Virus record (IMG/VR): IMGVR_UViG_3300002461_000132
Span: 1 to 64,000 of that record
Strand: one strand, 5' to 3'
Source of the DNA: a virus
Length of the DNA stretch: 64,000 nt
Shown here: piece by piece, positions 2,446 to 64,000 of the stretch
Layout: every line of letters starts with the position of its first letter
Position numbering within the stretch: position 1 is the first letter of the stretch
Translations under genes and position numbers: made by a program
The notes under the pieces: model-generated
The model's input: only the letters and a program-made list of their open reading frames with translations
What the model was told of the DNA's origin: nothing
Database searches by the model: none

Positions 2446-3203
2446 ACGGCGTGCTAGGGCGCGTCCCATCGCGCAAGGATCCGCGGACGTTGCGCCTAGC
2501 CAACTACGGGACCAACGGCATGTTGCCCGCGTCGCCGCCGGCGCGGTCGTGGGGCACCGGGCTGACGTTTCCCCTGTACGCGAACGATCGGATCGGGGAC
2601 TGCGCGATCGCGAGCGCCGCACACCTCGGCATCGCGTGGCTTGCGGCGAAGCGGACCGACGGCGCGTTGATCGATCGGGCACCGCTCGACGAGGCGGCCG
2701 TCGTCAGCGCCTATCGCGCGGTGTCGGGCTACAACCCGATGGATCCGTCGACGGACGTCGGTTGTCAGATGATCGACGTGTTGCGCTACTGGCGAAAGCA
2801 CGGCATCGGCGACGACAAGATCACGGCGTTCGCGGCCGTCGATCCGGATCGCCGCGACCACATCGCCGCGTGCGTCAACCTGTTCGGGGGCTGCTACATC
2901 GGCGCGGACCTTCCAACCGCCTCGCAGGATGATCCGGTTTGGCGCGCACCGTCGATCGAGGATCGCGGCCGCCCCGAATGGCGCGCGGGATCGTGGGGTG
3001 GTCACGCGATGGCGATCGTCGGCTACGATCGCGCGTCGGTGCAACTCGTCACGTGGGGTCGCGTGCAGCGCGCTACATGGTCGTGGATCGATGCGTACGT
3101 GTCCGAAGCGTGGGCCGTCGTCGATCCCGTTTGGTCATTCGGCGAGCGCACGCCGGCCGGCTTCGACGTCGGGCGCCTCGCGTTCGACCTGTCGCGCCTC
3201 TAG
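2442..3203 (+). CDS. Papain-fold (C1-like) cysteine peptidase, candidate cell-wall endopeptidase
   Basis: Motifs occur in papain order: [14 protein letters not shown] (Cys), [12 protein letters not shown] (His), [13 protein letters not shown]. It is the last gene of the plus-strand block, after two membrane proteins. Confidence 0.55.
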
Positions 3204-3910
3204 TCGTCGTATCCGTCACCGCGATCGCGCGCCTTCGCGCGAGCTCGCACATCCATCTCGACGGCCGCGCGCGCGAGCTCGACGCGTTCGACGTCGGCCT
3301 CGCGAGCTTCGGCGGTGCGCTCGCCGTCGTTCGGATTCGGTACGTTCGCTTTCAACTTGTGCAGGCCGCGGACTTCGACTTGACGAATTCGCTCGCGCGT
3401 CAGGTTCATGATCTCGCCGACCTCCTCGAGCGTGATCCCTCCGCGATCGGCGACGTCGAGCGCGCACGTGTGCTTGAGCTCCCACGGCTCGAGCTCCGGG
3501 AAATTGATCTTGATCGATCCCGTCTCGGGGTTGACGTCGAGATACAGGTGATACGCACACGAGACCCACGGGCACGGCCGATCCTGACCGAGACACTCGC
3601 CGCGCGTTGTCGGGCGAACGTGCAACGCATGCTCGCCGTCGAGATCGATCGGTCGCGCCACGGTCGCGAAGCCGGCGATCTTCGTCAGCGCGGTGTTGCG
3701 ACGCGCCATGCGAACCGAGATCGTGCGCGATCGCGGCCGCGTGCGACGGCGACGCGTGCGACGTTTCACGGCGCGCGGTGCCTCGATCGTCGGCACGATC
3801 GAATCGGTCGCGGCCTCGACGAAAGACGCCGCGACGCCGTCGAGGATCTCGGCCACTTCATCCACCGCGAAGAGATCCGGATCGATGTCACTTCGGGGGC
3901 GCAGATGCAT
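3200..3910 (-). CDS. Sigma-70 region-4-like HTH DNA-binding protein (no region 2 recognised)
   Basis: [38 protein letters not shown] matches the sigma70 region 4 HTH pattern. A Cys/His cluster (CPWVSCAYH) precedes it. Start taken at ATG 3910; GTG 3865 is also possible. Last gene of the minus arm. Confidence 0.6.
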
Positions 3911-4205
3911 CCTTCTTCGGCGGGGGCGGCCGCGTCTCGCCTGCAGCCGAGACGTGGTTGCGGTAGCCCGCGACGGCCACGACGAACGTGACGCCGTCAC
4001 CGCCGGGGTTGTCCTCGAGTCGCGCGTTGACGCCGGCGTACGGCTTGTCGAGCGCGCGCAGCGTCTCGATCGCCATCTCCTTCGCCGACTCGAACAACTC
4101 GAGGTGCGCGGGGCTCTCGAGACCTCGCGCCGGATGCACGCCGGCGTCGGCCTCGAGCACCGCGATCACGTCGTCACGTTCACCATTCACATCGATCATG
4201 ATCAT
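3888..4205 (-). CDS. Hypothetical protein (105 aa)
   Basis: [22 protein letters not shown]... The ATG at 4205 forms an ATGA overlap with the methyltransferase stop. The upstream part of listed ORF 3888..4526 is Arg-rich shadow sequence. Confidence 0.6.
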
Positions 4206-6500: not shown

Positions 6501-7478
6501 TCACGTTTGGGGCCACGGGTGGCGCTCCTTTCCGCCGTTCGTCTTGTCCGACTCGGCACCGAAGATCTCGTCGAGCACGTCGTGCATGATGCCCCGCTCG
6601 GGGATGGTAGAGCTCGGCTCGAGGCCGCACGCGCGCGCGCCGATCCACAACGGACCGGGATCGGTGCGTCGCTTCGGATCGACCTGGCAGTGGCCGAGCG
6701 CGCACACGTCGCGCGTCAGACCGTAGCGCCGCACGAGCGCGCTCGCGATCCGCAACGCGCCGAGCTTCTGCGCGTCGGTGTACTTGTGCAGCGCGCGACC
6801 GGGGGCCGTCACGTGCACCTCGTTGCGAGGCGAGCACGCCGGCCGCGCGTCGGGGTTGTCCCACCGGAACGGCCACGACGCCCACACCTTGCCGCCCCCG
6901 TCGACGTAGTCGGGGCCGAGCTTCTTCGCGCGGGCATCCGGTTCGATCCAACGAAGCTCACCGAGGTTGATCACCTCGACGCCGAACGCGAACGCGTTCG
7001 CACCGTAGCCGCGGATCTTGCCGCGTTGCGCGATCGTCAGCGGGACCCACGGTTGCGACTTCATCGCCGGGCGCATGAACAGCAACGTGCTGTCGGATCC
7101 CATGTGCCACGATCCGTGTTTCGCGCTGACCGACTGCGCGATCAGACCATCGCGATCCAACCACGCGTGGCACGATGCAGCGCGGCCGCCGGGCTTCGCG
7201 ATCCGCTCGGCGAGCGACTTCGCCGGCGTGTCGCGCGTGTCGGTCCAGTGCCAACCGATCGCGTCAATGTCGCCGTCGAGGGTCGACAGCGGCGATCGTT
7301 TGTTGGTCAGGATCACGTCGATGCCGTCGCCGTGCATGATGCCCTCGTCGTCGATCTCGATCGGCGCGGGGCCCTCGTGCGCGCGGTGCAGCATCTCGAT
7401 CGCAAGCCGCGTCGTCTCCGCGATCTGCGCGTTGAGCTCGGCGATCTTCTGTTCCGTTGCGGGGTCTCGGGTGGTCAT
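6501..7478 (-). CDS. N-acetylmuramoyl-L-alanine amidase (amidase_2 / PGRP fold)
   Basis: Motifs AIGWHWTDT, CHAWLDRDG, GSWHMG, FGVEVINLG and LGHCQVDPKRRTDPGP in the usual order. The ~60-aa N-terminal region is helical. Confidence 0.7.
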   Translation of the reverse strand: MTTRDPATEQKIAELNAQIAETTRLAIEMLHRAHEGPAPIEIDDEGIMHGDGIDVILTNKRSPLSTLDGDIDAIGWHWTDTRDTPAKSLAERIAKPGGRAASCHAWLDRDGLIAQSVSAKHGSWHMGSDSTLLFMRPAMKSQPWVPLTIAQRGKIRGYGANAFAFGVEVINLGELRWIEPDARAKKLGPDYVDGGGKVWASWPFRWDNPDARPACSPRNEVHVTAPGRALHKYTDAQKLGALRIASALVRRYGLTRDVCALGHCQVDPKRRTDPGPLWIGARACGLEPSSTIPERGIMHDVLDEIFGAESDKTNGGKERHPWPQT

Positions 7479-7487
7479 GGCTGATCC

Positions 7488-8045
7488 CTAGAACGTGTCG
7501 GGTTGGAAGGGAAGCGCGAACGATGCATCGCCGCACACGATCCGGATCTCGGGGAACGTGAACCGCGGGGCCGGCGCGCGGCCGAACCGCTCGCCGAGCT
7601 CGCGCGTCAGATCCGACTTGGTCGCCTTCTCGGCCTCGGGGCGACAGAGCGTGACGTGCGGGACGAACCCGAACGAATCGTCGACGCGCACCCGCCGGTT
7701 CTCGAGCTCGATCATCAACCCGGCACGCAGCGCGAACAGGTCGCGCGAGTTGACGAGCGTGATCAGGGTCGGCGCGTTCTTGCGCCAGAACCAACCGACG
7801 CCGGTGATCTGCGCGGCGATCGGGCCCTTGGTCGCGTTCGCGAGCTCGAGGGCTGCGCTGTAGATCTTCTCGACGCGCGCTTGATCGTTGTCACGGCCGA
7901 GGTGCACGAGCGTGACGTGCGCGTCCTCGGGGAACCATTCGCGCATCGGATGATCTCCGACGACTTCACGCGGCACGAACAACCCGATCCACAGACCGCG
8001 GCCGGCCTTCGCACCTTCGACGAGCTCGTTGTACTTGTCACCCAT
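7488..8045 (-). CDS. 2H phosphoesterase (LigT / cyclic phosphodiesterase family)
   Basis: Two HxT motifs about 90 aa apart (AHVTLVHLG and PHVTLCRP). ATG at 8045 (MGDKYNEL...). Confidence 0.65.
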   Translation of the reverse strand: MGDKYNELVEGAKAGRGLWIGLFVPREVVGDHPMREWFPEDAHVTLVHLGRDNDQARVEKIYSAALELANATKGPIAAQITGVGWFWRKNAPTLITLVNSRDLFALRAGLMIELENRRVRVDDSFGFVPHVTLCRPEAEKATKSDLTRELGERFGRAPAPRFTFPEIRIVCGDASFALPFQPDTF

Positions 8046-8055
8046 TCGATCGCTC

Positions 8056-8325
8056 CTACTTGATCGTCGGCGCAGCGCCGATCTCGCATCCGATGCACAC
8101 GTCTGATCCAGGATGCAGCCGGAAGTGACACACCGGACATCGGCGCTCGATCGGCTCGGACTGGAACCACGCGGCCGCGAGCACGAGAACGCTCGGCCGA
8201 ACCACGCGTGCGCGCGGGATCCGCGCTGATCGATCAACGAGAGATGTCACCGCCTCGATCACCTTGACGAAGATCGATCGAACGATCACGACGGAAGCGA
8301 TCCAGATGAAGATATCTCGCGGCAC
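8056..8325 (-). CDS. Small membrane protein with C-terminal zinc ribbon
   Basis: GTG start. Hydrophobic segments IFIWIASVVIVRSIF and PSVLVLAAAWF, then CPVCHF...CIGCE. A promoter-like element lies immediately upstream. Confidence 0.45.
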   Translation of the reverse strand: MPRDIFIWIASVVIVRSIFVKVIEAVTSLVDRSARIPRARVVRPSVLVLAAAWFQSEPIERRCPVCHFRLHPGSDVCIGCEIGAAPTIK

Positions 8326-11788: not shown

Positions 11789-12221
11789 CGACGACCGTCA
11801 GCCCCGTGACCGGGATGAAGGCTTGCGTGATCAACGCGCGGAGGTTCGCGCTCGGATCCGTGGCGAGCTCGCGACGCTCGAGATCGAGTTGCCCGAGCTC
11901 GAGGAGATCGATCGTCGGCAAGTGCAGGTCGCGCGCGAGATCCTTTTCGATCTTCATCCCAGGCGACAGCACACCGCCGACGAGCACGATCCCATCGCAT
12001 CGGCGCAGCATCGCAATGTCGTCGCGGATGCCGCGCTCGCGATGCTTGCCCTCGTCGAGCACCTCGACGTAGGGCAACCACGGCAACGCGAACGCGACGG
12101 ACGGCACGCACTCGACGAGCATCGTCAACCACAGCTTTGCGATCGCGATGTTGTTGGTGCGCGTCGGCTCTTTGCTTCCGACGGGATGCGCGATGTAGAT
12201 GATCGGGGTGTTCTTGCTCAT
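11781..12221 (-). CDS. Nucleoside 2-deoxyribosyltransferase-like protein (DUF4406/DUF1937 type)
   Basis: N-terminal PIIYIAHPVGS and later CDGIVLVGG resemble the Rossmann-like deoxyribosyltransferase fold families. ATGA overlap with the polymerase stop. Confidence 0.4.
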   Translation of the reverse strand: MSKNTPIIYIAHPVGSKEPTRTNNIAIAKLWLTMLVECVPSVAFALPWLPYVEVLDEGKHRERGIRDDIAMLRRCDGIVLVGGVLSPGMKIEKDLARDLHLPTIDLLELGQLDLERRELATDPSANLRALITQAFIPVTGLTVVGG

Positions 12222-14146
12222 GCTGCTTTCTCCTCGTACTTCTCGAGCTCGCCGTAGTTGGGTCCGTACTCGATGTCGACGCGCGACGGCACGCGCAGCG
12301 GCAACGCATCCTTCATGATCTGCACGGCTTCCTTCGCGCGTTGCATCGACGCCATGCTGAAATCGAATTCGTCGTGCACGGTCAGTCGCGGATCGTAACC
12401 CTCGCGATCGAGCGCGACCAACGCCATCTTCGTCTGAATCGCCGCGCTCCCTTGGATCAGCCGGTTCAGCGCCTTGTAGGTCCAATCGAAGTTGCCGAAC
12501 GCGTCGCGGGGGAAGCGCACGCGACGGCCGTCGATCAGGAACAGGTAGCCGCGTTGCTTCGCGGTGTCGCTACACTCACGTGCTAGCGCACGCACGAACG
12601 GCACTTTCTGATCGAGCGTGTCGAGGAGCGCTTGCGCCTCGGGCCCCGCGGCGAGGTACGGCTCGCCGTTGCGGTTGTGCTTGATCTCCGTCGGCAACTT
12701 CATTTTCGTTGCGAAGGTGCCGCTCGCCATCCCGTAGCAGATCGCGAGAAACGTTTCCTTCGCATCGCCACGCTTCAAGCCCGAGAGCTTCGCGAACATC
12801 GTGTGCGAATCCATGTTCGGATCGGTGCGGTAGAGATCGCCGAATTCCTTCGCGCCGCGCAGCCCGCGCACCTCGGCGTAGTGCACCGTCGTGCGGGGCT
12901 CTTGTTGCGAGTAGTCCCCCTTGATCCACATCTCGCCTTCCTCGGGGATGTAGATCTTTCGCCACTCCTTCCCGGTCTCGGGATCGCGGTTCGGCTGCGC
13001 TTGCACGTTCGGATGACGCGCGGCCGATCGCCCGTAGCGCGCTCCCTCGTCGTCGTCCTCGTCGTCGTCGGCGGCCGTGCGCATCTGCTTGAACGATGGA
13101 TGCAAGCGATCGCCGATCAGGTGATCGCGCACGCCGGCGACGTACGTCGTTTCGATCTTGTCGAATTTTCGCCAGCGCGTGATCGCGTCGACGACAGCGT
13201 TGCCCGAGAATTGGCCGAGTAGCTCTTTCGTGATCGACAGGTTACCGGGCTTGTTGGCGGCCGCTTGCTTCACCGTCGGCGGGTTGCGCGGGACGTGGAT
13301 GCCCTGCGTCTTGAGCGCCGCGGCGAGGGCATCCTTCATCATCGGCGACGGCACGTCGACGCCGGTCAGATGCTTGATCTTCGCGCGCATCTCGGCCGTG
13401 ACCGAGAGACACCACCGCGACATTCGCTCGAGGTGCTCGAGGTCGATGCGAACCCCTCGACGCGTCATGCGAAGCAGCGCGAGTTGCACGTATGACTCGT
13501 TGTCGTACGCGCGCTCGAGCTTCTGCTCGATGATCTTCTTCTCTTGAACGCGAAGCACCTTCGGCAGATCGCGCACGTCGCCTTCGGCATAGCGGCCGGC
13601 CGCGCCGGCGTGGAGCTTCCACAACTCTTTCTTCGGATGGAACCCCCACTCGATCGCGTGCGCCTCGAGCTCCTTCTCGTACTTGCCCTCGAACCCGTGT
13701 CGCTTCAACGTCGCGTCTAGGCTGTAGTCCATTTGCAATTCGTCGAGGAGACACTCGGCGTTCTGGACGTCGCGGTGCCACTTCGCGCGCTTGAATTCGA
13801 TCCCATCGTTCCACAGGTAGTCATGATCGTACTGACCACCGGACGTGATGATCGTGCCTTCGAAGTCGCGACACTGATCGCGGAAGTACGACACGACGTG
13901 CGCGCGATCGAGGTTGCCGCCTCCGGCGTGCGCGAACGGCAAGTAGTGTGCGGGGCCGTCCTCGATCGCGAACGCGATGCCGACCATGTGGCCGCCTCGA
14001 CGGCAACCGTTGCCGAGCTTCGACAGCGTGTCGTCACGGCACTCGATATCCACCGCCACGCGTTGCGCGTCTCGCCACGATGGCAAGCTGTTGACCGCGG
14101 GCGCTTGCCACGTGATCTTGGGGGCGAACATCGGAAGCTGTTGCAT
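12218..14146 (-). CDS. Family A DNA polymerase with 3'-5' exonuclease domain
   Basis: Exo I (VAVDIECRD), motif A (KGDYSQQEPR), motif B (RGDAKETFLAICYGM), motif C (LTVHDEFDF). Start taken at ATG 14146; GTG 14188 is also possible. Confidence 0.85.
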   Translation of the reverse strand: MQQLPMFAPKITWQAPAVNSLPSWRDAQRVAVDIECRDDTLSKLGNGCRRGGHMVGIAFAIEDGPAHYLPFAHAGGGNLDRAHVVSYFRDQCRDFEGTIITSGGQYDHDYLWNDGIEFKRAKWHRDVQNAECLLDELQMDYSLDATLKRHGFEGKYEKELEAHAIEWGFHPKKELWKLHAGAAGRYAEGDVRDLPKVLRVQEKKIIEQKLERAYDNESYVQLALLRMTRRGVRIDLEHLERMSRWCLSVTAEMRAKIKHLTGVDVPSPMMKDALAAALKTQGIHVPRNPPTVKQAAANKPGNLSITKELLGQFSGNAVVDAITRWRKFDKIETTYVAGVRDHLIGDRLHPSFKQMRTAADDDEDDDEGARYGRSAARHPNVQAQPNRDPETGKEWRKIYIPEEGEMWIKGDYSQQEPRTTVHYAEVRGLRGAKEFGDLYRTDPNMDSHTMFAKLSGLKRGDAKETFLAICYGMASGTFATKMKLPTEIKHNRNGEPYLAAGPEAQALLDTLDQKVPFVRALARECSDTAKQRGYLFLIDGRRVRFPRDAFGNFDWTYKALNRLIQGSAAIQTKMALVALDREGYDPRLTVHDEFDFSMASMQRAKEAVQIMKDALPLRVPSRVDIEYGPNYGELEKYEEKAA

Positions 14147-14153
14147 CTTGTTG

Positions 14154-14354
14154 CTACGTGGCTTTGGGAGCGGTGATCGTGATGGCACCGCCTCGGATGC
14201 CGTTCGTCGCTTTCTTGTTGGTGGCGACGTAGTCGATCGCCGCGGCGATGTGCTGCACGCCGTGGTCGGAAAGGTTCTCGAGCTTGAGCTCGATCACGTG
14301 TCCGTCTTGCCCGCGCAGCTTGATCACGCACTTCGACTTCGGGCCCCCGGTCAC
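14154..14354 (-). CDS. Small hypothetical protein (66 aa)
   Basis: The GTG at 14354 forms a GTGA overlap with the upstream stop. Sequence VTGGPKSKCVIKLRGQDGHVIELKLENLSDHG... Confidence 0.45.
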   Translation of the reverse strand: MTGGPKSKCVIKLRGQDGHVIELKLENLSDHGVQHIAAAIDYVATNKKATNGIRGGAITITAPKAT

Positions 14355-14704
14355 GGCATCACCTCCCAATCGCTCGCGAGATGATCGTCGAGGGTCAGCG
14401 TCATGATCTGCCCGTTCGCGAGGCAGACGAAGATCGATTTGCCCTCCTCGGCGTGGACCTTCTGACCGTTCGGCAACGTCGTCGACGGGAACAGCACGCG
14501 CGGATAGATCCACCAATGCCGCGCGAGGATCGCGAGACCTTCATCCTTTGCGGCGAGCGGCCCCATCGCGATCCACGTGCGCCGGCGGATCGGTCGACCC
14601 GAGCGCAACGCCGTCAGGAAATCGACGGCCACCGTCGGGGGAGGAACCGCCGTCGGATCTTCGGGGGCAGGTAGGCGGGGCACTTCGACGTCGACGGTCA
14701 TCAT
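14351..14704 (-). CDS. Hypothetical protein, DUF2829-like
   Basis: The DFLTALRSGRPIRRRTW...WWIY pattern recalls DUF2829. ATGA overlap at 14701-14704. Confidence 0.45.
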   Translation of the reverse strand: MMTVDVEVPRLPAPEDPTAVPPPTVAVDFLTALRSGRPIRRRTWIAMGPLAAKDEGLAILARHWWIYPRVLFPSTTLPNGQKVHAEEGKSIFVCLANGQIMTLTLDDHLASDWEVMP

Positions 14705-15285
14705 GATTTCATGTTCCAGGGGATCGGGTTTTGAGTCGAGGGTATCGCAGCTTTGCCCCGCGCGAGCGGATGCTTCGGGTAGCCACCTTGCGTCAACCCG
14801 AGGTGCGACGGGCGCACGCCGGCGTTGTGCAACGCGTCGCGAATCACGAGGCCGCGATCGTCGAGCTCGCCGTGCGTGCCCCATGCGGTGATGGTGATCG
14901 TCGCCTTCTCGGCCTCCTCGATGATCGTGGCGGTGTTGAATGCATCGGCGCCGCGCGCCTCGGGCTTCGCGTTGTACAGATCGATCGGGTACGGCGATCG
15001 CATCGCGAACAGGTTCACCACCTTCAAGATGATCCGAGCGTTGCCGTTGAGGTCGCGACCCCAGCGCCGCGCGTAGTTCACGCACCGCGACACCGTCGGA
15101 TCGTTCTTGAACGCGTCGGCCGTCGACGGATTCAACATGATGAACAGCACGACGATCTCGAGCGCGACGAGATCCTCCGAGCTCGGGATGCCCGGCTCGA
15201 CGAGTCGCGTCAGTAGGTAGCGATAGCGCTCGTCGTCGGAGAACAGCGCTTCATCGCCGTTGAGATCCGCGCGCTGCGTGATCAT
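14701..15285 (-). CDS. DUF1643-family protein
   Basis: YRYLLTR...FIMLNPSTADAFKNDPTVSRC...VVNLFAMRS matches the DUF1643 signature as remembered. Confidence 0.55.
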   Translation of the reverse strand: MITQRADLNGDEALFSDDERYRYLLTRLVEPGIPSSEDLVALEIVVLFIMLNPSTADAFKNDPTVSRCVNYARRWGRDLNGNARIILKVVNLFAMRSPYPIDLYNAKPEARGADAFNTATIIEEAEKATITITAWGTHGELDDRGLVIRDALHNAGVRPSHLGLTQGGYPKHPLARGKAAIPSTQNPIPWNMKS

Positions 15286-22941: not shown

Positions 22942-22984
22942 GAGAGACAGGTTAAGGCTTTCGTCAACAGTTGTCAACAGGATG
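22942..22984 (-). promoter_or_regulatory. Promoter cassette A (leaderless geometry)
   Basis: Minus strand: TTGACA (22977-22972), 17 nt, TAACCT (22954-22949), 7 nt, ATG 22941. Contains the TGTTGAC doublet. Confidence 0.6.
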
Positions 22985-25127: not shown

Positions 25128-25405
25128 GCGAGCTCGCCGGTGTGGCTGATCCGATTGCCGTGCTCGTCGGTGTACGTCAGCGTGGCGATGCATCGGCAGT
25201 TGATCGGCATCGTCGGTGGTGCCGTGAAGTAGGCGTCGACGTTGATCGTGATCGTCGACGGTGCCGCGTTGCTCGGTGCGAGCGCACCCATGCGCACGAC
25301 GGCGTCAGCTTTCGCGACGTCCTCCGCACGCAACATCTCCTCGGCTTCGGCGCGCGTGATCTGACGCCGGCGCGCGACATCTTCGATCTCTTCGATCTCG
25401 ATCAC
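25124..25405 (-). CDS. Hypothetical protein (93 aa)
   Basis: Start placed at GTG 25405 (GTGA overlap with the lipoprotein stop). GTG 25417 is the longest alternative. Confidence 0.5.
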   Translation of the reverse strand: MIEIEEIEDVARRRQITRAEAEEMLRAEDVAKADAVVRMGALAPSNAAPSTITINVDAYFTAPPTMPINCRCIATLTYTDEHGNRISHTGELA

Positions 25406-25734
25406 AGGGGCCAACACGCCGGCGCTTGCGCGTCACACGCCGTCGCCTCGAGCTCGGCCACGCACGCGGTGAACGCCTCCCAGTTGGGGAACACGAGCGA
25501 CTCGTCGATCGAACCGCACCGCTTGATCCCGCGATCGTCCGTCTCGCACGTAACGAGCAACGTGTCGGCGAGCGTGGCCTCGCACAACTCGACGCGGCCG
25601 CCGTCGCACGCAACCGAGCGTTCGCAGTACGACGACGCGTACACCGACAACGCGTCACCGTACGTCGCCGGCGGGGCGTCGACGCCGGTGCACGCAACGA
25701 GGAGCACCGCGATCATCATGAGGGTTATACGCAT
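25402..25734 (-). CDS. Cys-rich secreted lipoprotein
   Basis: MRITLMMIAVLLVAC gives a signal peptide plus lipobox. The mature part has about 10 Cys. The ATG at 25734 lies exactly 7 nt after a -10-like hexamer, with TTGACA 17 nt further upstream. ATG 25743 is the alternative. Confidence 0.55.
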   Translation of the reverse strand: MRITLMMIAVLLVACTGVDAPPATYGDALSVYASSYCERSVACDGGRVELCEATLADTLLVTCETDDRGIKRCGSIDESLVFPNWEAFTACVAELEATACDAQAPACWPL

Positions 25735-25774: not shown

Positions 25775-26773
25775 TCAGTGCACGGTGTCGACGATGTCGG
25801 GGTAGCCGGCCGCGTGGTGTGCGCGGGCTTCTTCGATCGTGTCGTAGATCTCTTCATCGAACCAACCGAGCTCGAGGGCGAGCTCGCGCTCGGCTTTCAA
25901 CTCGTCGAACCCCTGACGCGTCAGCGCTGTCGACTTGATCTCGATCGAGCTCGTTGCGCCGGCGAGCCGAGCTTCATCCTGGTACCGCGTCAGCACGCGC
26001 GGACCGTTGCCGCGGCCGTTCGTGCGGCCGACGAGGCGACGCACCGTCACGCTGTCCGACGTGATCTTCGCGTTCGGGCGCACCGACTTGATCGCGGCGA
26101 TCGCCGGCAAGAACTTCGGCGACTCGGGGCCGATGCCGAGCAAGTGAATCCGCGCGCCGAACCACGGCAACCCCGTGCAGAGCTCGCGCAGATCCTCGAG
26201 CGACGTTGCATCCTTCTTCATCGGGACGCCGGCGATCAGATCGGTCGGACGCATGCCGAGGATCTCGACCTGTCGGGCCCATGCCGCGGACATCGCAAGC
26301 GCACCCTTCTGCACCGGCACGATGATCTGCGCGCGCAACCCGGCGAGCAAGTGCATCACGTGCGACCAACGCGCGAGGCGTTCGAACGTCGCAGCCTGAT
26401 CACCGACGAGGTCGGGCGCAACGAGGTACGCGCGTTGACCGAACGTGTGGGCCGCCCAAAAGTAGATCGCGAACCGCTCGATCCACGACGCATCCGTGAT
26501 CGGCTTCTTCACGACGAGGCGGCCGGCCGTCGGGTCGAACGCGACTTCGCCGAACGCGCCGGAGTCAACGAAGATGCGCATCATCGGGCCGGCCTCGCGC
26601 TCGCACGCGTCGAGCAAACCATCGCGGATCTCCGTGGCGGTGATCCCGAAGTGGCGAGCCGATCGGCAGAGCCCCATCACTTCGCCGGGGTGGTTCACGC
26701 CGGAAGCGAAATGCTCGCCTTCCTGCGAGAGCTCGAGCGGGTACGCGACGTCGGGGCGATACTTTCCTTGCAT
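25775..26773 (-). CDS. tRNA-guanine-transglycosylase-fold protein (DpdA-like DNA transglycosylase candidate)
   Basis: RIFVDSGAFGEV (compare TGT DSGGFQ), VAPDLVGD, IIVPVQKG, IAGVPMKK and IHLLGIGPESPKFL (compare TGT MGVGKPDD) are spaced as beta-strand ends of a TIM barrel. The ATG at 26773 follows cassette B. Confidence 0.45.
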   Translation of the reverse strand: MQGKYRPDVAYPLELSQEGEHFASGVNHPGEVMGLCRSARHFGITATEIRDGLLDACEREAGPMMRIFVDSGAFGEVAFDPTAGRLVVKKPITDASWIERFAIYFWAAHTFGQRAYLVAPDLVGDQAATFERLARWSHVMHLLAGLRAQIIVPVQKGALAMSAAWARQVEILGMRPTDLIAGVPMKKDATSLEDLRELCTGLPWFGARIHLLGIGPESPKFLPAIAAIKSVRPNAKITSDSVTVRRLVGRTNGRGNGPRVLTRYQDEARLAGATSSIEIKSTALTRQGFDELKAERELALELGWFDEEIYDTIEEARAHHAAGYPDIVDTVH

Positions 26774-26816
26774 GAGATACACTCTAAGCCTTCCGTCAAC
26801 AGTTGTCAACAGGTCC
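26774..26816 (-). promoter_or_regulatory. Promoter cassette B (leaderless geometry)
   Basis: Minus strand: TTGACA (26809-26804), 17 nt, TAGAGT (26786-26781), 7 nt, ATG 26773. Confidence 0.6.
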
Positions 26817-26823
26817 AAACGAA

Positions 26824-27129: not shown

Positions 27130-27172
27130 GAGAGACAGGTTAAGCCTTCCGTCAACAGTTGTCAACAGGTCC
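27130..27172 (-). promoter_or_regulatory. Promoter cassette C (leaderless geometry)
   Basis: Minus strand: TTGACA (27165-27160), 17 nt, TAACCT (27142-27137), 7 nt, ATG 27129. Confidence 0.6.
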
Positions 27173-27202: not shown

Positions 27203-27598
27203 CTAGCAGTTAGCCCCGTGGTTCGCACCGCGGCACATGCAATCGCATGCGGGGCCGGTCGCGTTGCGACAGATCGCCCCGCACTTGTGGCGCGACTTCT
27301 TCGTGCCCTCGGTGACCTTGTGCAGCTTGATCCACGTGTCGCAACCCGGGCACTTCGCGATCACCGACGCATCCTCGTTGTAGACGCGCGACGTTGCGAT
27401 CCCGGTCCCGTCAGCGTGCACGATCGCGATCCCCTGCAACGTCAGCCCCGACGCTCCCTCGAGCTTGTGCGTGCCCTTGCGGCCGCCGGCGCGACAGATC
27501 CGGCACCGGCCGATCCATCGGGCGGCCGCGGCGAGCTCGCGCACGAGGACGATCGGGCCGGTCGCCTTGAACGCCGGAAGCATGGTGATCGTCGTCAC
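27203..27598 (-). CDS. Cys-rich zinc-finger-like early protein (131 aa)
   Basis: The GTG start lies 2 nt after the upstream stop. Motifs CRICRAG, CPGCD and a C-terminal cluster HKCGAICRNATGPACDCMCRGANHGANC. Confidence 0.55.
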   Translation of the reverse strand: MTTITMLPAFKATGPIVLVRELAAAARWIGRCRICRAGGRKGTHKLEGASGLTLQGIAIVHADGTGIATSRVYNEDASVIAKCPGCDTWIKLHKVTEGTKKSRHKCGAICRNATGPACDCMCRGANHGANC

Positions 27599-27821: not shown

Positions 27822-27864
27822 GAGAGACAGGTTAAGCCTTCCGTCAACAGTTGTCAACAGGTCC
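27822..27864 (-). promoter_or_regulatory. Promoter cassette D (leaderless geometry)
   Basis: Minus strand: TTGACA (27857-27852), 17 nt, TAACCT (27834-27829), 7 nt, ATG 27821. Confidence 0.6.
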
Positions 27865-28198: not shown

Positions 28199-28241
28199 GA
28201 GAGACAGGTTAAGCCTTCCGTCAACAGTTGTCAACAGGTCC
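28199..28241 (-). promoter_or_regulatory. Promoter cassette E (leaderless geometry), leftward member of the divergent pair
   Basis: Minus strand: TTGACA (28234-28229), 17 nt, TAACCT (28211-28206), 7 nt, ATG 28198. Confidence 0.6.
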
Positions 28242-28304: not shown

Positions 28305-28347
28305 GGACCTGTTGACAACTGTTGACGCAAGGCTTAACCTGTCTCTC
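28305..28347 (+). promoter_or_regulatory. Promoter cassette F (leaderless geometry), rightward member of the divergent pair
   Basis: TTGACA (28312-28317), 17 nt, TAACCT (28335-28340), 7 nt, ATG 28348. Confidence 0.6.
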
Positions 28348-28730: not shown

Positions 28731-28773
28731 TGACCTGTTGACAACTGTTGACGAAAGGCTTAACGTAGATCCC
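28731..28773 (+). promoter_or_regulatory. Promoter cassette G (leaderless geometry)
   Basis: TTGACA (28738-28743), 17 nt, TAACGT (28761-28766), 7 nt, ATG 28774. Confidence 0.6.
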
Positions 28774-29226
28774 ATGACGAAACGCATTGTTCACGCCCCG
28801 ATGAATTGGCCGAGCACGGCCGTTGCGCGCGTCACGATCAATTGGTCGGAGATCTCCGGCGGTGACGGCCGCACGTTCGTCGGACTCGCGGGCATCGATC
28901 ATTGGCTGCGCGCGAAGCTCGATCAGGCAGCGCTCAAGAGCGAAGGAGCGTACGGGGATCGTGGTTGCGATCGTCCGTCGGGCTACCTCAAGACGGAGAT
29001 CGAAGTGGTGTGGTGTGACGGCGAGCGGTTCACGTTCCGCGTCGATCTCAACTACGGCGTGACCTGTCGCGCCGATGCCCTCGGTTCGGACATCGTGACG
29101 GCCGAGCTCGTGCAGCGCGCGGCCTACTCGCGAGAGAAGGCCGACACGTTCGGCGTCTACTCGCCGGAGCTCTGCGCGTTCGTGGAATCGCGACTCGGCA
29201 CCATTGCACGCGAGCTCGCCGCGTGA
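28774..29226 (+). CDS. Early ORFan (150 aa)
   Basis: MTKRIVHAPMNWPSTAVARVTINW... The ATG lies 7 nt after the -10 of cassette G. GTGA overlap with the AlkB-like gene. Confidence 0.6.
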   Translation: MTKRIVHAPMNWPSTAVARVTINWSEISGGDGRTFVGLAGIDHWLRAKLDQAALKSEGAYGDRGCDRPSGYLKTEIEVVWCDGERFTFRVDLNYGVTCRADALGSDIVTAELVQRAAYSREKADTFGVYSPELCAFVESRLGTIARELAA

Positions 29227-29783
29227 CGTTGCCCGGCTGCTTCGCGCTGCAACGTCAGTGGATCATCGGTCACGATGCGGTGCTCGAGATCCTCGAGCGT
29301 ACGCTTCCGTGGTCCGTCGAACGAATCCGCATGTTCGGGCGCACCGTGCCGGTACCGCGTGCGACGGCGCTGATCGGCGAAGCACCGTACACCTACTCGG
29401 GCATCCGGCACACACCGGCCCCGTGGGATCCCATGCTCGCCGCGATGCGTGATCGCCTCGAGCGCGAGCTCGGGATCCGCTTCAACTCGTGTCTCGCCAA
29501 CTTCTACCGGAACGGCCGCGACTCGGTCGCCTGGCATGCGGATGACGAACCCGAGCTCGGCGAGCGGCCGACGATCGCAAGCGTGTCACTCGGGGACGCT
29601 CGGGCATTCGTCGTGCGTCGTGCCGCGGTTCCTCGCAACGTCGTCGAGGTGCTCGAGCTCGGATACGGTGACCTCCTCGTGATGCGCGACGAGTCGCAAG
29701 CGGACTATCAGCATTGCGTGTTCAAGACCTCGCATCCGGTCGGGCCCCGCATCAACCTGACGTTCCGATCCGTGCGCGTCTAG
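29223..29783 (+). CDS. alkB: AlkB-like Fe(II)/2-oxoglutarate-dependent dioxygenase
   Basis: NFYRNGRDSVAWHADDEPELG (HxD iron ligands), DLLVM...YQHCV (distal His) and RINLTFRSV (2OG-binding Arg) occur in AlkB order. Confidence 0.7.
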   Translation: MTLPGCFALQRQWIIGHDAVLEILERTLPWSVERIRMFGRTVPVPRATALIGEAPYTYSGIRHTPAPWDPMLAAMRDRLERELGIRFNSCLANFYRNGRDSVAWHADDEPELGERPTIASVSLGDARAFVVRRAAVPRNVVEVLELGYGDLLVMRDESQADYQHCVFKTSHPVGPRINLTFRSVRV

Positions 29784-36328: not shown

Positions 36329-36513
36329 CGCATCACGAGAAGATGAAGCGCCGATCACTGATCGTGCGACGTCACGCAGCGCAGCAACGCGCGTTGTTCG
36401 CGCTCCCTCCTCGGGGCGAGCTCCATGGCGCGCAAGTCGACGCCGATCCTGATCCCCCGATGCCGGCCCTCGCCGAGCACGAGGGTGACGTGTTGGATCA
36501 CTTCAAGCTGTGA
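36325..36513 (+). CDS. Small hypothetical protein (62 aa)
   Basis: GTGA overlaps at both ends (36325 and 36510). Sequence VTHHEKMKRRSLIVRRHAAQQRALF... Confidence 0.4.
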   Translation: MTHHEKMKRRSLIVRRHAAQQRALFALPPRGELHGAQVDADPDPPMPALAEHEGDVLDHFKL

Positions 36514-38513
36514 CGGCGGCCGCGGCATCGGCCGCGAGCGATGCCGCGTTCTTGCCGCGGAAGTTGCTCGGCCTCGCGTTCGGCAACGTGCCGACGGCGT
36601 TCGACGCGATCGCGAAGGTGCGTGCATCGCGATCCATGATCGCGTTCGTCGAATTGTTCTGGCCCGTGATCGAGCCGATGCAGCCTTTCATCCGATCGTG
36701 GGTGCAAGAGACGCTCGGCAAGCACCTCGAGCTCGTCACCTCCGAGGACATCGACAAGCTCCTTTTCAACGTCCCCCCGGGTTTCAGCAAAAGCACGTTC
36801 GTGAACGTGTTCTTTCCCCCGTGGGAATGGGGCCCGAAGCAGCGACCTGATCTTCGCTACATCTCGTGGTCGTACGCGGCCGGTCTCACCGAGCGCGACA
36901 ACAACCTCTGTCGCAAGATCGTCGAGTCACCGCTCTATCAACGCCTGTGGGGGCAGTGCAACAAGTGCGTGAAGCGGCCCGATGGTGCGCCTCGTTGCCC
37001 TGCGTGCGAGGCCGAGCGCCGCTTCCGTCTCGACGGTGACTCGAATGCAAAGAAGTTCTACCGCAACGATTGGGGTGGCTTCCGCCTCGCATCGTCCGTC
37101 GGTGGTGGTGGTACCGGCTATCGCGCCGATCGCCTGATCTTCGACGATCCGCACTCGGTCGCCTCGGTCGAATCCGATGCCGAGCGGCAAGCCACGATCG
37201 ATTGGTTCGCCGGCACGTTGCCGTCGCGCGTGCGCAACACGACGGGTGGCAAGGGGGCGAAGCGCGTGAAGCTCCCCGATTGGGTCGCGCGTGCGCATGG
37301 CAAGGCGCTCGAGGGTGACGACGTGAAGCGCGCGCCCCCGGAGTACACGTGCAACACGTGCAGTGCGAAGGTGGCGAGCTCGAGCTCGAGGTGCGTCGTG
37401 CATCCCGATGCGCCGATCGACACGTTCGAAGTGCCGGCCGAAGTCTACGAGGGTCCTCGCCCCGTGAAGTCGGCGACGATCGGCATCATGCAACGCGTGC
37501 ACTTGCGTGACGTCAGCGGCGTGATCCTCGCAACCCCCGAGCTCGGCTACACGCACGTGCTCGTCGAGATGGAGCTTCTCGGCAACGATCATCCGGCGCG
37601 CATCGCGAACGACAACGGCAAGATCCCGTCGCCACCGTCGCGGTTCGGCTTCCAGGATCCGCGGATCGCGCGCGTGGCCGAGGTCAAGCGACACCTCGTC
37701 AGCGTGCCTTTGTCCGACGACCGGACAGACGCATTCGCGAACCTCGGCAACATCTTCGCGCGCGTCGCGCTCGACATGGCGACGCTCGCCGATCCGATCC
37801 GGTATCCGCGATCGGAGTACGAGCGGCTCAAGGCGCAGCTACTACTCAAGAGCGGCGCGAACGCCGTCGAGGCGCAATACCAGCAGTGGCCACAAGAGAT
37901 CGGCGGTGACTACTTCCCGCTCGAGATGGTGATGCCGCGTGCGGCCGAGAAGACGCGCCGGATCTTGAAGCGGGGCGATTGCCTCCCTTCGCTCTGTGGG
38001 TACATGACGCGCGGATGGGATCTCGCCGCGACCGACGACAACAAGGCGGCCGCGACCGTCGGTGTGCTCGGGTACATCGACACGGATCACCGCGTGATCA
38101 TCGTCGACGTCGTGAAGCTCCGAGGGGGCCCCGACGAAGTCGATCACCTGATCCTGCACACCACCGAGACGGATGGCCGCGACGTGCGTCAGGATCTACC
38201 GCGCGATCCCGGGCAAGCGGGAAAGTACCAGGTCAACGCGTTCACGCGGATGTTGATGGGGCACGAGGTCGACCACAGCCCCGAGGCCGGCAAGAAAACC
38301 CGACGTGCCTATCCGCTGTCGTCGCAGTGGAAGATCGGCAACGTGTGGTTGGTGGAAGGCGAGTGGAACACCGAGTTTCTTCGCATCATGTCGGAGTTTC
38401 CCGTCGGCACGTTCATGGATGAAGTTGACGCCTCGGTGCGGATGTTCGACAGTCAAGTGCGCGCCGAACCCGTTTCGAAACCTCGCGGGGGCAGATCGAT
38501 CAAAATCCGATGA
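36510..38513 (+). CDS. terL: Terminase large subunit
   Basis: Walker A-like NVPPGFSKST, Walker B ADRLIFDDPHS and a C-terminal nuclease-sized domain. It lies immediately before the portal gene. Confidence 0.8.
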   Translation: MTAAAASAASDAAFLPRKLLGLAFGNVPTAFDAIAKVRASRSMIAFVELFWPVIEPMQPFIRSWVQETLGKHLELVTSEDIDKLLFNVPPGFSKSTFVNVFFPPWEWGPKQRPDLRYISWSYAAGLTERDNNLCRKIVESPLYQRLWGQCNKCVKRPDGAPRCPACEAERRFRLDGDSNAKKFYRNDWGGFRLASSVGGGGTGYRADRLIFDDPHSVASVESDAERQATIDWFAGTLPSRVRNTTGGKGAKRVKLPDWVARAHGKALEGDDVKRAPPEYTCNTCSAKVASSSSRCVVHPDAPIDTFEVPAEVYEGPRPVKSATIGIMQRVHLRDVSGVILATPELGYTHVLVEMELLGNDHPARIANDNGKIPSPPSRFGFQDPRIARVAEVKRHLVSVPLSDDRTDAFANLGNIFARVALDMATLADPIRYPRSEYERLKAQLLLKSGANAVEAQYQQWPQEIGGDYFPLEMVMPRAAEKTRRILKRGDCLPSLCGYMTRGWDLAATDDNKAAATVGVLGYIDTDHRVIIVDVVKLRGGPDEVDHLILHTTETDGRDVRQDLPRDPGQAGKYQVNAFTRMLMGHEVDHSPEAGKKTRRAYPLSSQWKIGNVWLVEGEWNTEFLRIMSEFPVGTFMDEVDASVRMFDSQVRAEPVSKPRGGRSIKIR

Positions 38514-62243: not shown

Positions 62244-64000
62244 ATGTGGCTTACACTCGCAATTTGGGGCGTCACCCTTGCCGCATCGTGGGCCTATAAC
62301 AAGTGGGGTCGCGAGGAGCCGAAGAAGCCGGAGAGTCGGTTGCTCGAGCTCGCCGGCAACTTGCCGCGCACCGACGAGGGCACGCCGATCCCGCTCGTGT
62401 TCGGACGCGTGCGCGTCAACCGCGCGCTCGTCGTGTGGTACTCGCCTCCGCAAAACGTGTGGGCCGACAACCCTCCGCGGTGGCGGTACGCGATCGACAT
62501 GCTGTTCGTCGTCGGCATCCCGATGAAGTTTGGAGCGCCGACGTTCGACGGCCTCGGCAACCGCACGCACTCGCGCGAGCCGAAGTTGTGGAACATGTAC
62601 ATCGGAGATCAAACCGAGGTGTGGACGACGACGGCGTGGGTGCCGGTGACGCACGAGCGCGAAGCTGTTGTTGTGGTCGATCAGGGCGGCCCCGGTGCCG
62701 GTGGTCAGATCGTTGGATCGCTGCACTGGTATAACGGTTCACCCGATCAGACCCTTAGTAACAACCTCGCTAACTTCTCAGTCGGACCGGACCCCGATAC
62801 CTATCTATTCCCGGCTGTCTCGGACATCACCGAGATCGCGAATAGCATGCAGTTTCACGAGGAGGACGGCACGTTGATCCCGGGGTACCGCGATCAAATG
62901 CTCGTCTCGCTGACGACGGCCGGCAACAACTACGGGGCCGGCATCGGAGGGTTGACCGAAGGATTCGAGATCCCGGAGTCAGGATCGATCCCGCCGTTCG
63001 GTTTCGAGGTGTCGACGTACGGCGCCGATCGCTACAGCGTCGCCGGGTTTAACGGCCTCGGTGACGACGCGGATCCGATCGAGGTCATTCACGAGATCTT
63101 GGAATCGGATTGGGGCAAGGTCGGCTACCCGTCGGCCGCGATCGACGCGGTGTCGTTTCAAGCGGCGAGCGACGTGCTGTGTGCCGAGGGCAACGGATAC
63201 TCGCGCGTCCACTACGACACCGAGGACGCGAAGCAAGTCATCCAAGGCATTCTAAAGCAGATGAATGCTGTGATGTACGAGGAGCCGAGCAACGGAAAGC
63301 TGACTCTAAAGCTCGTACGACCCGACTACAACCCGGCGACGATTCCGCAATTCGGCGACGGCGGTGCCGGCATCGTCGAGTGTGAGGACTACGCGATCGG
63401 CAACTACGGCGACACGTACAACGAAGTGCACGTGACCTACACGTCACGTGCCGTTGGCTACTTGCCCCGCATCGCTCGCGCGTACGACGCAGGCAACAGC
63501 GTGCAAGCTGTCGGCGGCCGCAAGCGCGTGCACACCGTCGACTATCCGGGGTGCTGCACCGAGGAGCTCGCGAGCGCGCTCGCCGGCCGCGATCTCGCCG
63601 CGATGTCGCGGCCGCTCGCGAAAGGGCGTTTCGTGTTCGATCGTCGGGCCGATGGCGTACGGCCGGGCGATGTCATTCGGATCACGAGCTTCGCGCAACA
63701 CCACATTGTCAACTTGGTGTTCCGCGTCATGAACATGGATCGAGGTGACCTATTCGATGGGCGCATCACTCTCGATCTGATTCAAGATCCGTTCGGGACG
63801 GCGACGGCCGGTGTTGATCCCGGCGACGTCGAACCGCTGTTCTTGTTCCCGGGTCCGCTGACGCATCGCGTGTTCGACGAGGCGCCGCGGTTGCTGATCC
63901 GTCAGGCGATCGCGGCCGGCAAGATCACCGGCAACGCGGACGATCAACGCGTGATGATGTGCGCGTCGCAAGAGGATTCGTTCTCGGAGATGGGGATCGT
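62244..64000 (+). CDS. Host-specificity / central tail fibre protein (lambda J-like), N-terminal part; 3' end outside window
   Basis: Absent from the ORF track because no stop occurs before the window end. ATG 62244 opens a frame that I read as open through 64000. N-terminal MWLTLAIWGVTLAASW, then GTPIPLVFGRVRV, typical of J-type N termini. Confidence 0.6.
   Translation, partial: MWLTLAIWGVTLAASWAYNKWGREEPKKPESRLLELAGNLPRTDEGTPIPLVFGRVRVNRALVVWYSPPQNVWADNPPRWRYAIDMLFVVGIPMKFGAPTFDGLGNRTHSREPKLWNMYIGDQTEVWTTTAWVPVTHEREAVVVVDQGGPGAGGQIVGSLHWYNGSPDQTLSNNLANFSVGPDPDTYLFPAVSDITEIANSMQFHEEDGTLIPGYRDQMLVSLTTAGNNYGAGIGGLTEGFEIPESGSIPPFGFEVSTYGADRYSVAGFNGLGDDADPIEVIHEILESDWGKVGYPSAAIDAVSFQAASDVLCAEGNGYSRVHYDTEDAKQVIQGILKQMNAVMYEEPSNGKLTLKLVRPDYNPATIPQFGDGGAGIVECEDYAIGNYGDTYNEVHVTYTSRAVGYLPRIARAYDAGNSVQAVGGRKRVHTVDYPGCCTEELASALAGRDLAAMSRPLAKGRFVFDRRADGVRPGDVIRITSFAQHHIVNLVFRVMNMDRGDLFDGRITLDLIQDPFGTATAGVDPGDVEPLFLFPGPLTHRVFDEAPRLLIRQAIAAGKITGNADDQRVMMCASQEDSFSEMGI

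Follow-up and report, generated by a model that had tools for sequence, protein, structure and literature searches.

The window analysed here, 64,000 nucleotides (nt) of the IMG/VR virus record IMGVR_UViG_3300002461_000132, carries on its minus strand (25775-26773) a gene for a 332-residue protein that we propose to be a stand-alone base-exchange enzyme of the tRNA-guanine transglycosylase (TGT)/DpdA superfamily. It would represent a new, large subfamily whose closest known relatives, remote as they are, are the DpdA proteins of phages 9g and Rosebush, and it would probably swap bases in DNA for a base supplied by the host; to this reading as a whole we assign a probability of about 0.45. Its parts differ in strength. 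Membership of the superfamily, with an intact double-displacement active site and in a setting of DNA modification, is well supported; DNA as the substrate, the identity of the inserted base and a protective role are what we infer from the analysis below.

The open reading frame (ORF) spans 25775-26818, and within it we take the ATG at 26773-26771 as the start because the starts of homologues coincide with it in the homologue alignment; translation from there gives 332 amino acids (aa) and ends at a stop codon at 25777-25775. The ORF and its codon bias back the coding status of 25775-26773, and AlphaFold2, Foldseek and hhalign together with these identify the product as a TIM-barrel protein and a divergent member of the TGT/DpdA superfamily. 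A sequence-only reading of the window had singled out five motifs as resembling those at the strand ends of TGTs and of their DNA-acting phage relatives, and all five are in frame. FVDSGAF (aa 68-74, 26552-26572) lies past strand beta3 and supplies D70, the predicted general acid/base, and F74, predicted to stack on the base; VAPDLVGDQ (aa 118-126, 26396-26422), past beta4, contains the predicted base-recognition residue D121; IIVPVQKG (aa 150-157, 26303-26326) lies past beta5 and includes Q155; IAGVPMKK (aa 180-187, 26213-26236), at beta6, ends in K187, an invariant residue specific to this family; and IHLLGIGPESP (aa 209-219, 26117-26149), at beta7, holds H210. A sixth motif absent from that list, ITSDS (aa 237-241, 26051-26065), is situated at beta8 and contains D240, the predicted catalytic nucleophile.

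Twelve positions in or around these motifs (D70, F74, D121, Q155, G157, P184, K187, H210, L212, G213, G215 and D240) do not vary in 49 homologues, and among 107 diverse ones each is conserved to at least 90%; the catalytic Asp residues, including D240, are also invariant in 20 proteins in which the domain is fused to others. Within a large family, conservation is highest at the five motifs first noticed, which means that they are not chance. The resemblance to TGT and DpdA proposed from them is likewise borne out by the predicted TIM barrel, by best structural and profile matches to TGT and phage DpdA, and by the conservation of the catalytic positions.

The AlphaFold2 model, built from the alignment of 49 homologues, has a mean pLDDT of 92.8 and a pTM of 0.90 and describes a TIM barrel of eight strand-helix units with a helical C-terminal extension, in which the predicted catalytic residues sit at the C-terminal ends of strands beta3, 4, 5, 7 and 8. 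The top 38 Foldseek matches in the PDB are all Z. mobilis TGT (E 4.5e-7 to 1e-4), with unrelated TIM barrels appearing from 3e-4. With bacterial TGT (Z. mobilis and E. coli Tgt), which provides the best solved structural match, the protein shares the order of the strand-end motifs and a Gln past beta5, the residue at the position of Q155 being Q203 in Z. mobilis TGT; it differs from bacterial TGT in having no beta-sheet lid at the N-terminus and no C-terminal zinc subdomain, and identity is only 11-12%. The best match among the viral models of BFVD, at E 9e-17 and 28% identity, is an 'ART-PolyVal-like domain-containing protein' of 877 aa that we take to be a member of the family, and an Arthrobacter phage 'queuine tRNA-ribosyltransferase' ranks third.

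Profile comparison provides the link to DpdA. With a profile of 258 family sequences as query, hhalign aligns 144 columns to a 9g-type DpdA profile (E 3.3e-5), finds a Rosebush-type profile at E 7.5e-5, and aligns 148 columns (residues 56-242) to a merged 9g and Rosebush profile with 90.7% probability and E 1.2e-6. Column-shuffled DpdA controls score 15-16 +/- 2.5 with a maximum of 28, against the observed 42-43, which lies about 10 standard deviations above them. When the DpdA profile is compared with 57 ORFs of the window, the transglycosylase-like gene comes first with 139 aligned columns, and the runner-up has 17. BLAST and HMMER give no match between the 332-aa protein and DpdA1, the phage DpdA branch of 9g, CAjan and Rosebush.

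The hhalign alignment pairs residues of the protein with residues of 9g DpdA as D70/D72, F74/F76, D121/D114, G124-D125/G117-D118, Q155/H141, H210/H196 and D240/D215, and the paired 9g residues are all invariant in an alignment of DpdA1; VAPDLVGDQ also aligns to LDVIGDQAAT of Rosebush gp2. The TGT/DpdA superfamily has three invariant active-site Asp residues, namely the general acid/base of the DSGxF motif, a base-recognition residue and the nucleophile; in Salmonella DpdA, Asp95 is the general acid/base and Asp256 the nucleophile, alanine mutants of which are dead, while Asp130 together with His181 reads the edge of the base, against which Phe99 stacks (PMC10164549). All three superfamily Asp residues are present here as D70, D121 and D240; D70 and F74 correspond to Asp95 and Phe99 of Salmonella DpdA and, through the 9g alignment, D240 to Asp256. 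H210 pairs with a His (His196 in 9g) that is conserved in DpdA and absent from DpdA2 (PMC6884629). These catalytic assignments rest on alignment rather than superposition. A calibration model of 9g-type DpdA reached a pLDDT of 54.5 and was set aside.

Annotation libraries do not recognise the protein. Searches of Pfam, NCBIfam and PADLOC with hmmscan return no TGT, DpdA or Cap10 match for it, and the Pfam TGT model (PF01702) finds nothing at E <= 10 in the protein itself or at E <= 0.01 in 107 relatives. PHROGs gives one weak, unnamed match and none with a function; ten diverse members of the family have no PADLOC match at E <= 10, the presence of DpdA and Cap10 models in that library being assumed rather than confirmed; and sequence searches of the PDB with the single protein, two family profiles or three fusion proteins yield nothing relevant. 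A match to Imm75 is sub-threshold (18.6 bits against a cut-off of 25) and occurs in one of 107 relatives, and we treat it as chance. The protein also has only three Cys residues and no CxCxxC, so that the structural zinc site CxCxxC...H of TGTs, already reported as unseen by the sequence-only reading, is absent. That reading had named the lack of any TGT-family profile hit as grounds for abandoning the assignment, and in Pfam, NCBIfam and PADLOC there is indeed no such hit. Two validated DNA transglycosylases serve as controls, 9g DpdA and Rosebush gp2, the latter from a phage in whose DNA dPreQ0 replaces 28% of G (PMC6884629). Their protein clusters also have no Pfam domain on record, both proteins lack CxCxxC, as does nt-1 DpdA2, and both carry DSGAF rather than DSGGF. 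Since validated phage DpdAs are also without a Pfam match or zinc motif, both absences are normal and the negative is uninformative, and the DSGAF type of motif, like the missing zinc site, proves typical of validated phage DpdAs.

We propose that the family is best treated, on alignment evidence, as a sister clade of DpdA1, a separate large clade that lies nearest to it and belongs to no named DpdA subfamily. With DpdA1 it shares, in collinear order, DSGAF, D-x-x-G-D, the His196 equivalent and an [ST]-D-S nucleophile motif, together with the lack of a zinc motif and of a Pfam TGT match, a size near 320 aa and a position in the replication or early region of the phage. It differs in the remoteness of the similarity (E 1e-6, where the two branches of DpdA1 match each other at 1e-27), in having Gln155 where 9g has His141 and Salmonella DpdA has His181, in an additional invariant Glu76 and Lys187 and an N-terminal FASGxN motif, and in being unlinked to preQ0 genes in every locus examined; its closer relatives also carry a conserved Gly/Arg-rich loop (GRTNGRGxGPR) and a helical C-terminal extension that DpdA1 lacks. 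The literature uses DpdA2 for the nt-1 type and places Rosebush with 9g. Comparison with the single nt-1 sequence YP_008125322 (DpdA2) gives E 0.0056 over beta7-beta8 only, a weak test as this is a single sequence and not a profile, and comparison with phi19:2 gp042 (DpdA3, presumed from its position to be the homologue of phiST CGPG_00065) gives E 0.24, with the collinear motifs LDNG, PLD, CPQGE, HFLGAG and TDS seen by eye only. A single E. coli Tgt sequence gives no significant match, but the DpdA1 profile also misses the single E. coli Tgt, nt-1 and phi19:2 sequences, and such comparisons therefore lack the power to position the family relative to those clades. DpdA4 (DUF6610, PF20314) has no match in the 332-aa protein or its relatives.

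The family is large and widely distributed. We find 256 close homologues, all unnamed, and a hidden Markov model search of 1.84 billion representatives recovers 1060 clusters at E <= 1e-3 and 904 at E <= 1e-10, clusters being counted at 50% identity. Among species-representative genomes the closest copies are in metagenome-assembled genomes (MAGs) of Myxococcota (63%, 43%, 42% and 39% identity), and others occur in Acidobacteriota, Actinomycetota, Bacteroidia and Proteobacteria. Some of the genomes come from isolates, and isolates that carry relatives include Edaphobacter modestus, Silvibacterium bohemicum, Pseudoalteromonas sp. 0303 and Pseudomonas sp. GOM6; the family is further found in metagenomes, prophage-like regions and polyvalent proteins. 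Megablast and tblastn searches with the 332-aa protein and two distant relatives find no match in 50,697 records of isolated phages.

Multidomain proteins of 480-2480 aa account for 35 of 146 newly listed representatives, and a Pfam scan of 141 representatives identifies the fusion partners as DUF6884 (five proteins), PAPS reductase (three), a polyvalent-type InPase (three), C5 DNA methylase (two) and, once each, ddrB-ParB, another methyltransferase, nucleoside 2-deoxyribosyltransferase and L5 gp82. Two of these, InPase and DdrB-ParB, are characteristic of the polyvalent proteins of phages (PMC5512222), and DUF6884 is a distant relative of YaaA/DUF328 (PMC11701544), DUF328 being DpdC, which turns dPreQ0 in DNA into dADG, and DpdB being ParB-like (PMC5699537, PMC12839542). 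The family resembles the bacterial Dpd system (DpdA with ParB-like DpdB and DUF328 DpdC) in that DUF6884, repeatedly, and a domain of the ParB superfamily occur as fusion partners of its members; it differs in that the window protein has neither the zinc site nor the large Ins8 insertion of that DpdA and no PADLOC Dpd match. It similarly recalls phage polyvalent proteins, several long relatives carrying InPase, ddrB-ParB, DNA methylase or PAPS reductase domains (PMC5512222), with the difference that no Pfam model covers the transglycosylase-like domain; a term search of Iyer et al. 2017 (PMC5512222) finds no mention of a TIM-barrel, TGT, queuine or nucleic-acid transglycosylase domain.

The gene stands alone in its own genome. 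The window corresponds to a rotated stretch of a circular contig from an activated-carbon metagenome, 67,201 bp long and repeating after about 67,023 bp, and the approximately 3 kb outside it fall inside the gene for a 1906-aa tail protein (Phage-tail_3, Laminin_G_3) that starts at 62244 and ends at window position 941, so that the ORF at 108-941 is the C-terminus of that protein and no separate gene. Because the missing 3 kb lie within the tail gene, the gene inventory is complete and the search for precursor genes covers the whole genome. Pfam scans of 57 window ORFs detect no FolE, QueD, QueE, QueC, QueF, amidotransferase or YhhQ domain and no other precursor or transporter gene, and tblastn of the whole window with eight FolE/QueD/QueE/QueC seeds from phages 9g and Rosebush gives no match; the absence of folE/queD/queE/queC reported from the window alone thus extends to the complete genome. 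We also find no ParB-like/DpdB-like or DpdC-like gene in the genome, no cap9 or dpdB/dpdC partner genes in the window and no tRNA genes in the phage. The accompanying claim that DpdA usually travels with folE/queD/queE/queC goes too far, as Hutinet 2019, in which co-occurrence with these genes marks groups 1 and 2, has phages with DpdA only as its largest group; two of these were tested, and Orion is unmodified whereas 7-11 carries dADG (PMC6884629). Our phage resembles this group in having a transglycosylase-like gene without FolE/QueD/QueE/QueC, so that modification is not predictable from sequence, and differs in that their proteins are recognisable as DpdA by BLAST or PSI-BLAST.

To characterise the surroundings of the family we compared 45 loci (24 genomic, 5 from assemblies, 15 from IMG/VR and the window locus, a few of them redundant). 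The FolE/QueD/QueE/QueC seeds match nothing within 10 kb in any of them, and all-against-all clustering of ORFs reveals no neighbour family in more than 5; two neighbour clusters that seemed frequent are, by their coordinates, shadow ORFs inside the gene itself. With no recurrent neighbour and no preQ0 genes, the gene has the character of a mobile module that is complete in itself. Neighbours seen now and then are PAPS reductase, nucleoside deoxyribosyltransferase, DNA methylase and Mom: a nucleoside 2-deoxyribosyltransferase gene adjoins the homologue in two loci (L029/L030, 11070-11444), and across these and a third (L028, 3401-4660 and 19060-19863) genes of PAPS-reductase-like, C5 DNA methylase and Mom-like type stand a few kb or less from the homologue, a pattern suggesting that related phage contigs hold islands of DNA-modification genes.

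In our proposal, an early transcript of the gene would start at a leaderless promoter of its own within the replication arm. By analogy with DpdA, on double-stranded phage DNA Asp240 would attack C1' of a target deoxyguanosine while Asp70 protonates the leaving guanine, giving a covalent enzyme-DNA intermediate; a free base of the 7-deazaguanine type, bound by Asp121 and Gln155 and with Phe74 stacking against it, would then resolve the intermediate. As the phage makes no such base, the donor must come from the cell and would most simply be preQ0 of the host queuosine pathway; DNA modified in this way would resist restriction. There are precedents for such an exchange, in that 9g DpdA alone in E. 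coli inserted host preQ0 into plasmid DNA and the DpdA-only phage 7-11 carries dADG, phages with DpdA only being common (PMC6884629).

Several observations weigh against this proposal. The homology to DpdA is remote, the 9g and Rosebush types matching each other at E 1e-27, and in the alignment the invariant Lys187 and Glu76 have no DpdA counterpart. The Foldseek TM score to TGT is only about 0.42, no better than that to DERA-type barrels, and the matches at E <= 1e-3 include a single TGT species, with no archaeal or eukaryotic TGT and no bacterial DpdA. DNA of the DpdA-only mycobacteriophage Orion is unmodified (PMC6884629). Salmonella DpdA requires the ATPase DpdB (PMC10164549), a dependence that counts here because no ParB-like gene was found in the genome. 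The proposal also presumes a host that makes preQ0. Finally, the lack of preQ0 genes within 10 kb in all 45 loci is explained by the use of another donor base no less well than by dependence on the host.

This last point leads to the alternative that we keep most seriously in play, unlikely though we consider it, in which an enzyme of the same superfamily and with the same covalent-Asp chemistry has another outcome: it may insert a base other than preQ0, for example some other deazapurine or a purine analogue released from nucleotides, or may simply act as a DNA glycosylase on guanine or a modified base. The absence of preQ0 genes within 10 kb of the gene in the 45 loci speaks for such an enzyme; the nucleoside 2-deoxyribosyltransferase that is fused to the domain once and adjoins it in L029/L030 is an enzyme that handles free bases; the replacement of the DpdA His by Gln155 and the family-specific Lys187 and Glu76 point in the same direction; and DpdA3 and DpdA4 already show substrate shifts (PMC10516641). 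Nevertheless, the guanine-recognition Asp and Gln are those of TGT, the fusions to DpdC-like DUF6884 point to chemistry of the preQ0/ADG type, and no alternative donor pathway is conserved beside the gene in the 45 loci.

The gene might instead be functionally silent in this phage, encoding a DpdA-like enzyme for which no donor base is available, as in Orion, which has DpdA only and no 7-deazaguanine in its DNA (PMC6884629). The lack of precursor and transporter genes in the Pfam scans of the window is in keeping with this; however, all catalytic positions are strongly conserved across more than 1000 clusters, the gene has a promoter-like cassette of its own, and the domain has repeatedly been recruited into polyvalent proteins, and we regard silence as improbable.

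That the protein is an unrelated TIM-barrel enzyme, for instance an aldolase-like one acting through Lys187, and that its likeness to TGT and DpdA is convergent or an artefact at the level of the fold, is hard to credit. The TM score to TGT (0.42) is indeed matched by those to DERA/KE70 barrels (0.43-0.44), no library of hidden Markov models recognises the protein as a TGT, and Lys187, past beta6, is invariant; against this stand the hhalign score some 10 standard deviations above shuffled profiles, six collinear motifs in which five DpdA-invariant residues align, and Foldseek E-values that favour TGT by about three orders of magnitude. An RNA target, such as position 34 of host tRNA, is very unlikely: the best solved structural matches are tRNA-guanine transglycosylases, but the protein is without their C-terminal zinc subdomain, the phage has no tRNA genes, the closest profile match is to DNA-acting phage DpdA, and the fusion partners are DNA-modification domains. 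Lastly, it is extremely unlikely that the target is a deazaguanine linked to protein, as might serve to counter type IV CBASS, in which the TGT-family protein Cap10 binds a cyclase with 7-deazaguanine on its N-terminus, for although TGT-family proteins can act on protein conjugates (bioRxiv 10.1101/2025.04.06.647259) and the domains of polyvalent proteins typically serve as anti-defence effectors (PMC5512222), the PADLOC Cap10 models show no similarity and the gene context lends no support.

Returning to the base-exchange enzyme with a host-supplied donor, DpdA without a pathway is already known (PMC6884629). What appears to be new is the clade itself, which is missed by annotation resources, has no tblastn match in isolated phages, is very abundant in metagenomes and occurs repeatedly in polyvalent proteins beside DpdC-like and DNA-methylase domains; literature searches aimed at additional DpdA subfamilies, or at polyvalent proteins with deazaguanine enzymes, gave no match. 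It is conceivable, and we advance it only tentatively, that this is a very large and unrecognised branch of transglycosylases (more than 1000 clusters at 50% identity), a portable module that phages and other mobile elements carry as a single gene or within polyvalent proteins, and that it may install an undescribed DNA base or may modify incoming DNA as soon as it is injected, with whatever free base the host pool provides. An undescribed base comes into consideration because the family is unlinked to deazapurine synthesis in the examined loci. DpdA has been proposed as the signature protein of viral 7-deazaguanine DNA modification (PMC10516641), and if the present family is active, surveys underestimate the number of phages that exchange DNA bases. 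Its separation from preQ0 genes also offers a clean test between parasitism on the host queuosine precursor and use of another donor base, and the fusions to DpdC-like and DNA methylase domains suggest that base exchange could be delivered within injected anti-restriction proteins.

The leaderless cassette that the sequence-only reading placed ahead of the gene is present and agrees with that description, its role as a promoter following from consensus only. The cassette (CTGTTGACAACTGTTGACGGAAGGCTTA) has seven near-identical copies of about 45 nt in the window against 0 expected, five on the minus strand (22953-22980, 26785-26812, 27141-27168, 27833-27860 and 28210-28237) and two on the plus strand (28309-28336 and 28735-28762), and all but one of them surround a divergent early region at 26.8-28.8 kb. 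The layout is TTGACA, 17 nt, TAnnnT, 7 nt, ATG, every copy running directly into a start codon. The copy that belongs to the transglycosylase-like gene (26774-26816, minus strand) reads TTGACA, 17 nt, TAGAGT, 7 nt, ATG, the ATG lying 14 nt past its CTGTTGACAACTGTTGACGGAAGGCTTA sequence, and judged by this consensus it implies a transcript that would begin at or near the ATG. The cassettes look like strong leaderless promoters and are possibly operator sites as well, as TTGACAACTGTTGAC holds a direct TTGAC repeat.

Other genes lie in or near this early region. Immediately downstream of the transglycosylase-like gene is a small minus-strand ORF (25402-25720) with a lipoprotein-type signal at its start (MNPMRITLMMIAVLLVAC), which may be co-transcribed with it and may encode a superinfection-exclusion or membrane protein. 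A Cys-rich ORF of 131 aa (27203-27598, minus strand), with several CxxC pairs and a weak match to DUF6510, is situated in the same early leftward block behind another copy of the cassette. In the early rightward operon, behind two copies, an AlkB-like 2OG-Fe(II) oxygenase (PF13532, E 1e-28; 29223-29783, plus strand) is a candidate nucleic-acid repair or modification enzyme.

The remainder of the genome is that of a siphovirus, with a tape-measure protein, tail tube, Mu-like portal, MuF and terminase identified in the Pfam scans, and its replication arm encodes a family A DNA polymerase, a DUF5906 primase-helicase-like protein, SF1 and SNF2 helicases and a RecA-like protein. The DNA polymerase (12218-14188) is 47-48% identical to those of the Pseudomonas siphoviruses ZC01, Ab18 and PaMx11, and the terminase (36510-38513) is 35% identical to that of Shewanella phage S0112; set beside the Myxococcota MAGs that hold the closest homologues of the transglycosylase-like gene, these affinities point to no single host. 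Between the SF1 helicase and DNA polymerase genes lies a gene for a DUF1643 protein (E 1e-28; 14701-15285, minus strand). A sigma-70 region 4 protein (PF04545, E 8e-10; 3200-4000, minus strand) could redirect host RNA polymerase, and a LigT-like 2H phosphoesterase of the 2'-5' RNA ligase family (7488-8237, minus strand), whose gene adjoins that of the endolysin amidase (6501-7478), may serve in RNA repair or in counter-defence against cyclic nucleotides.

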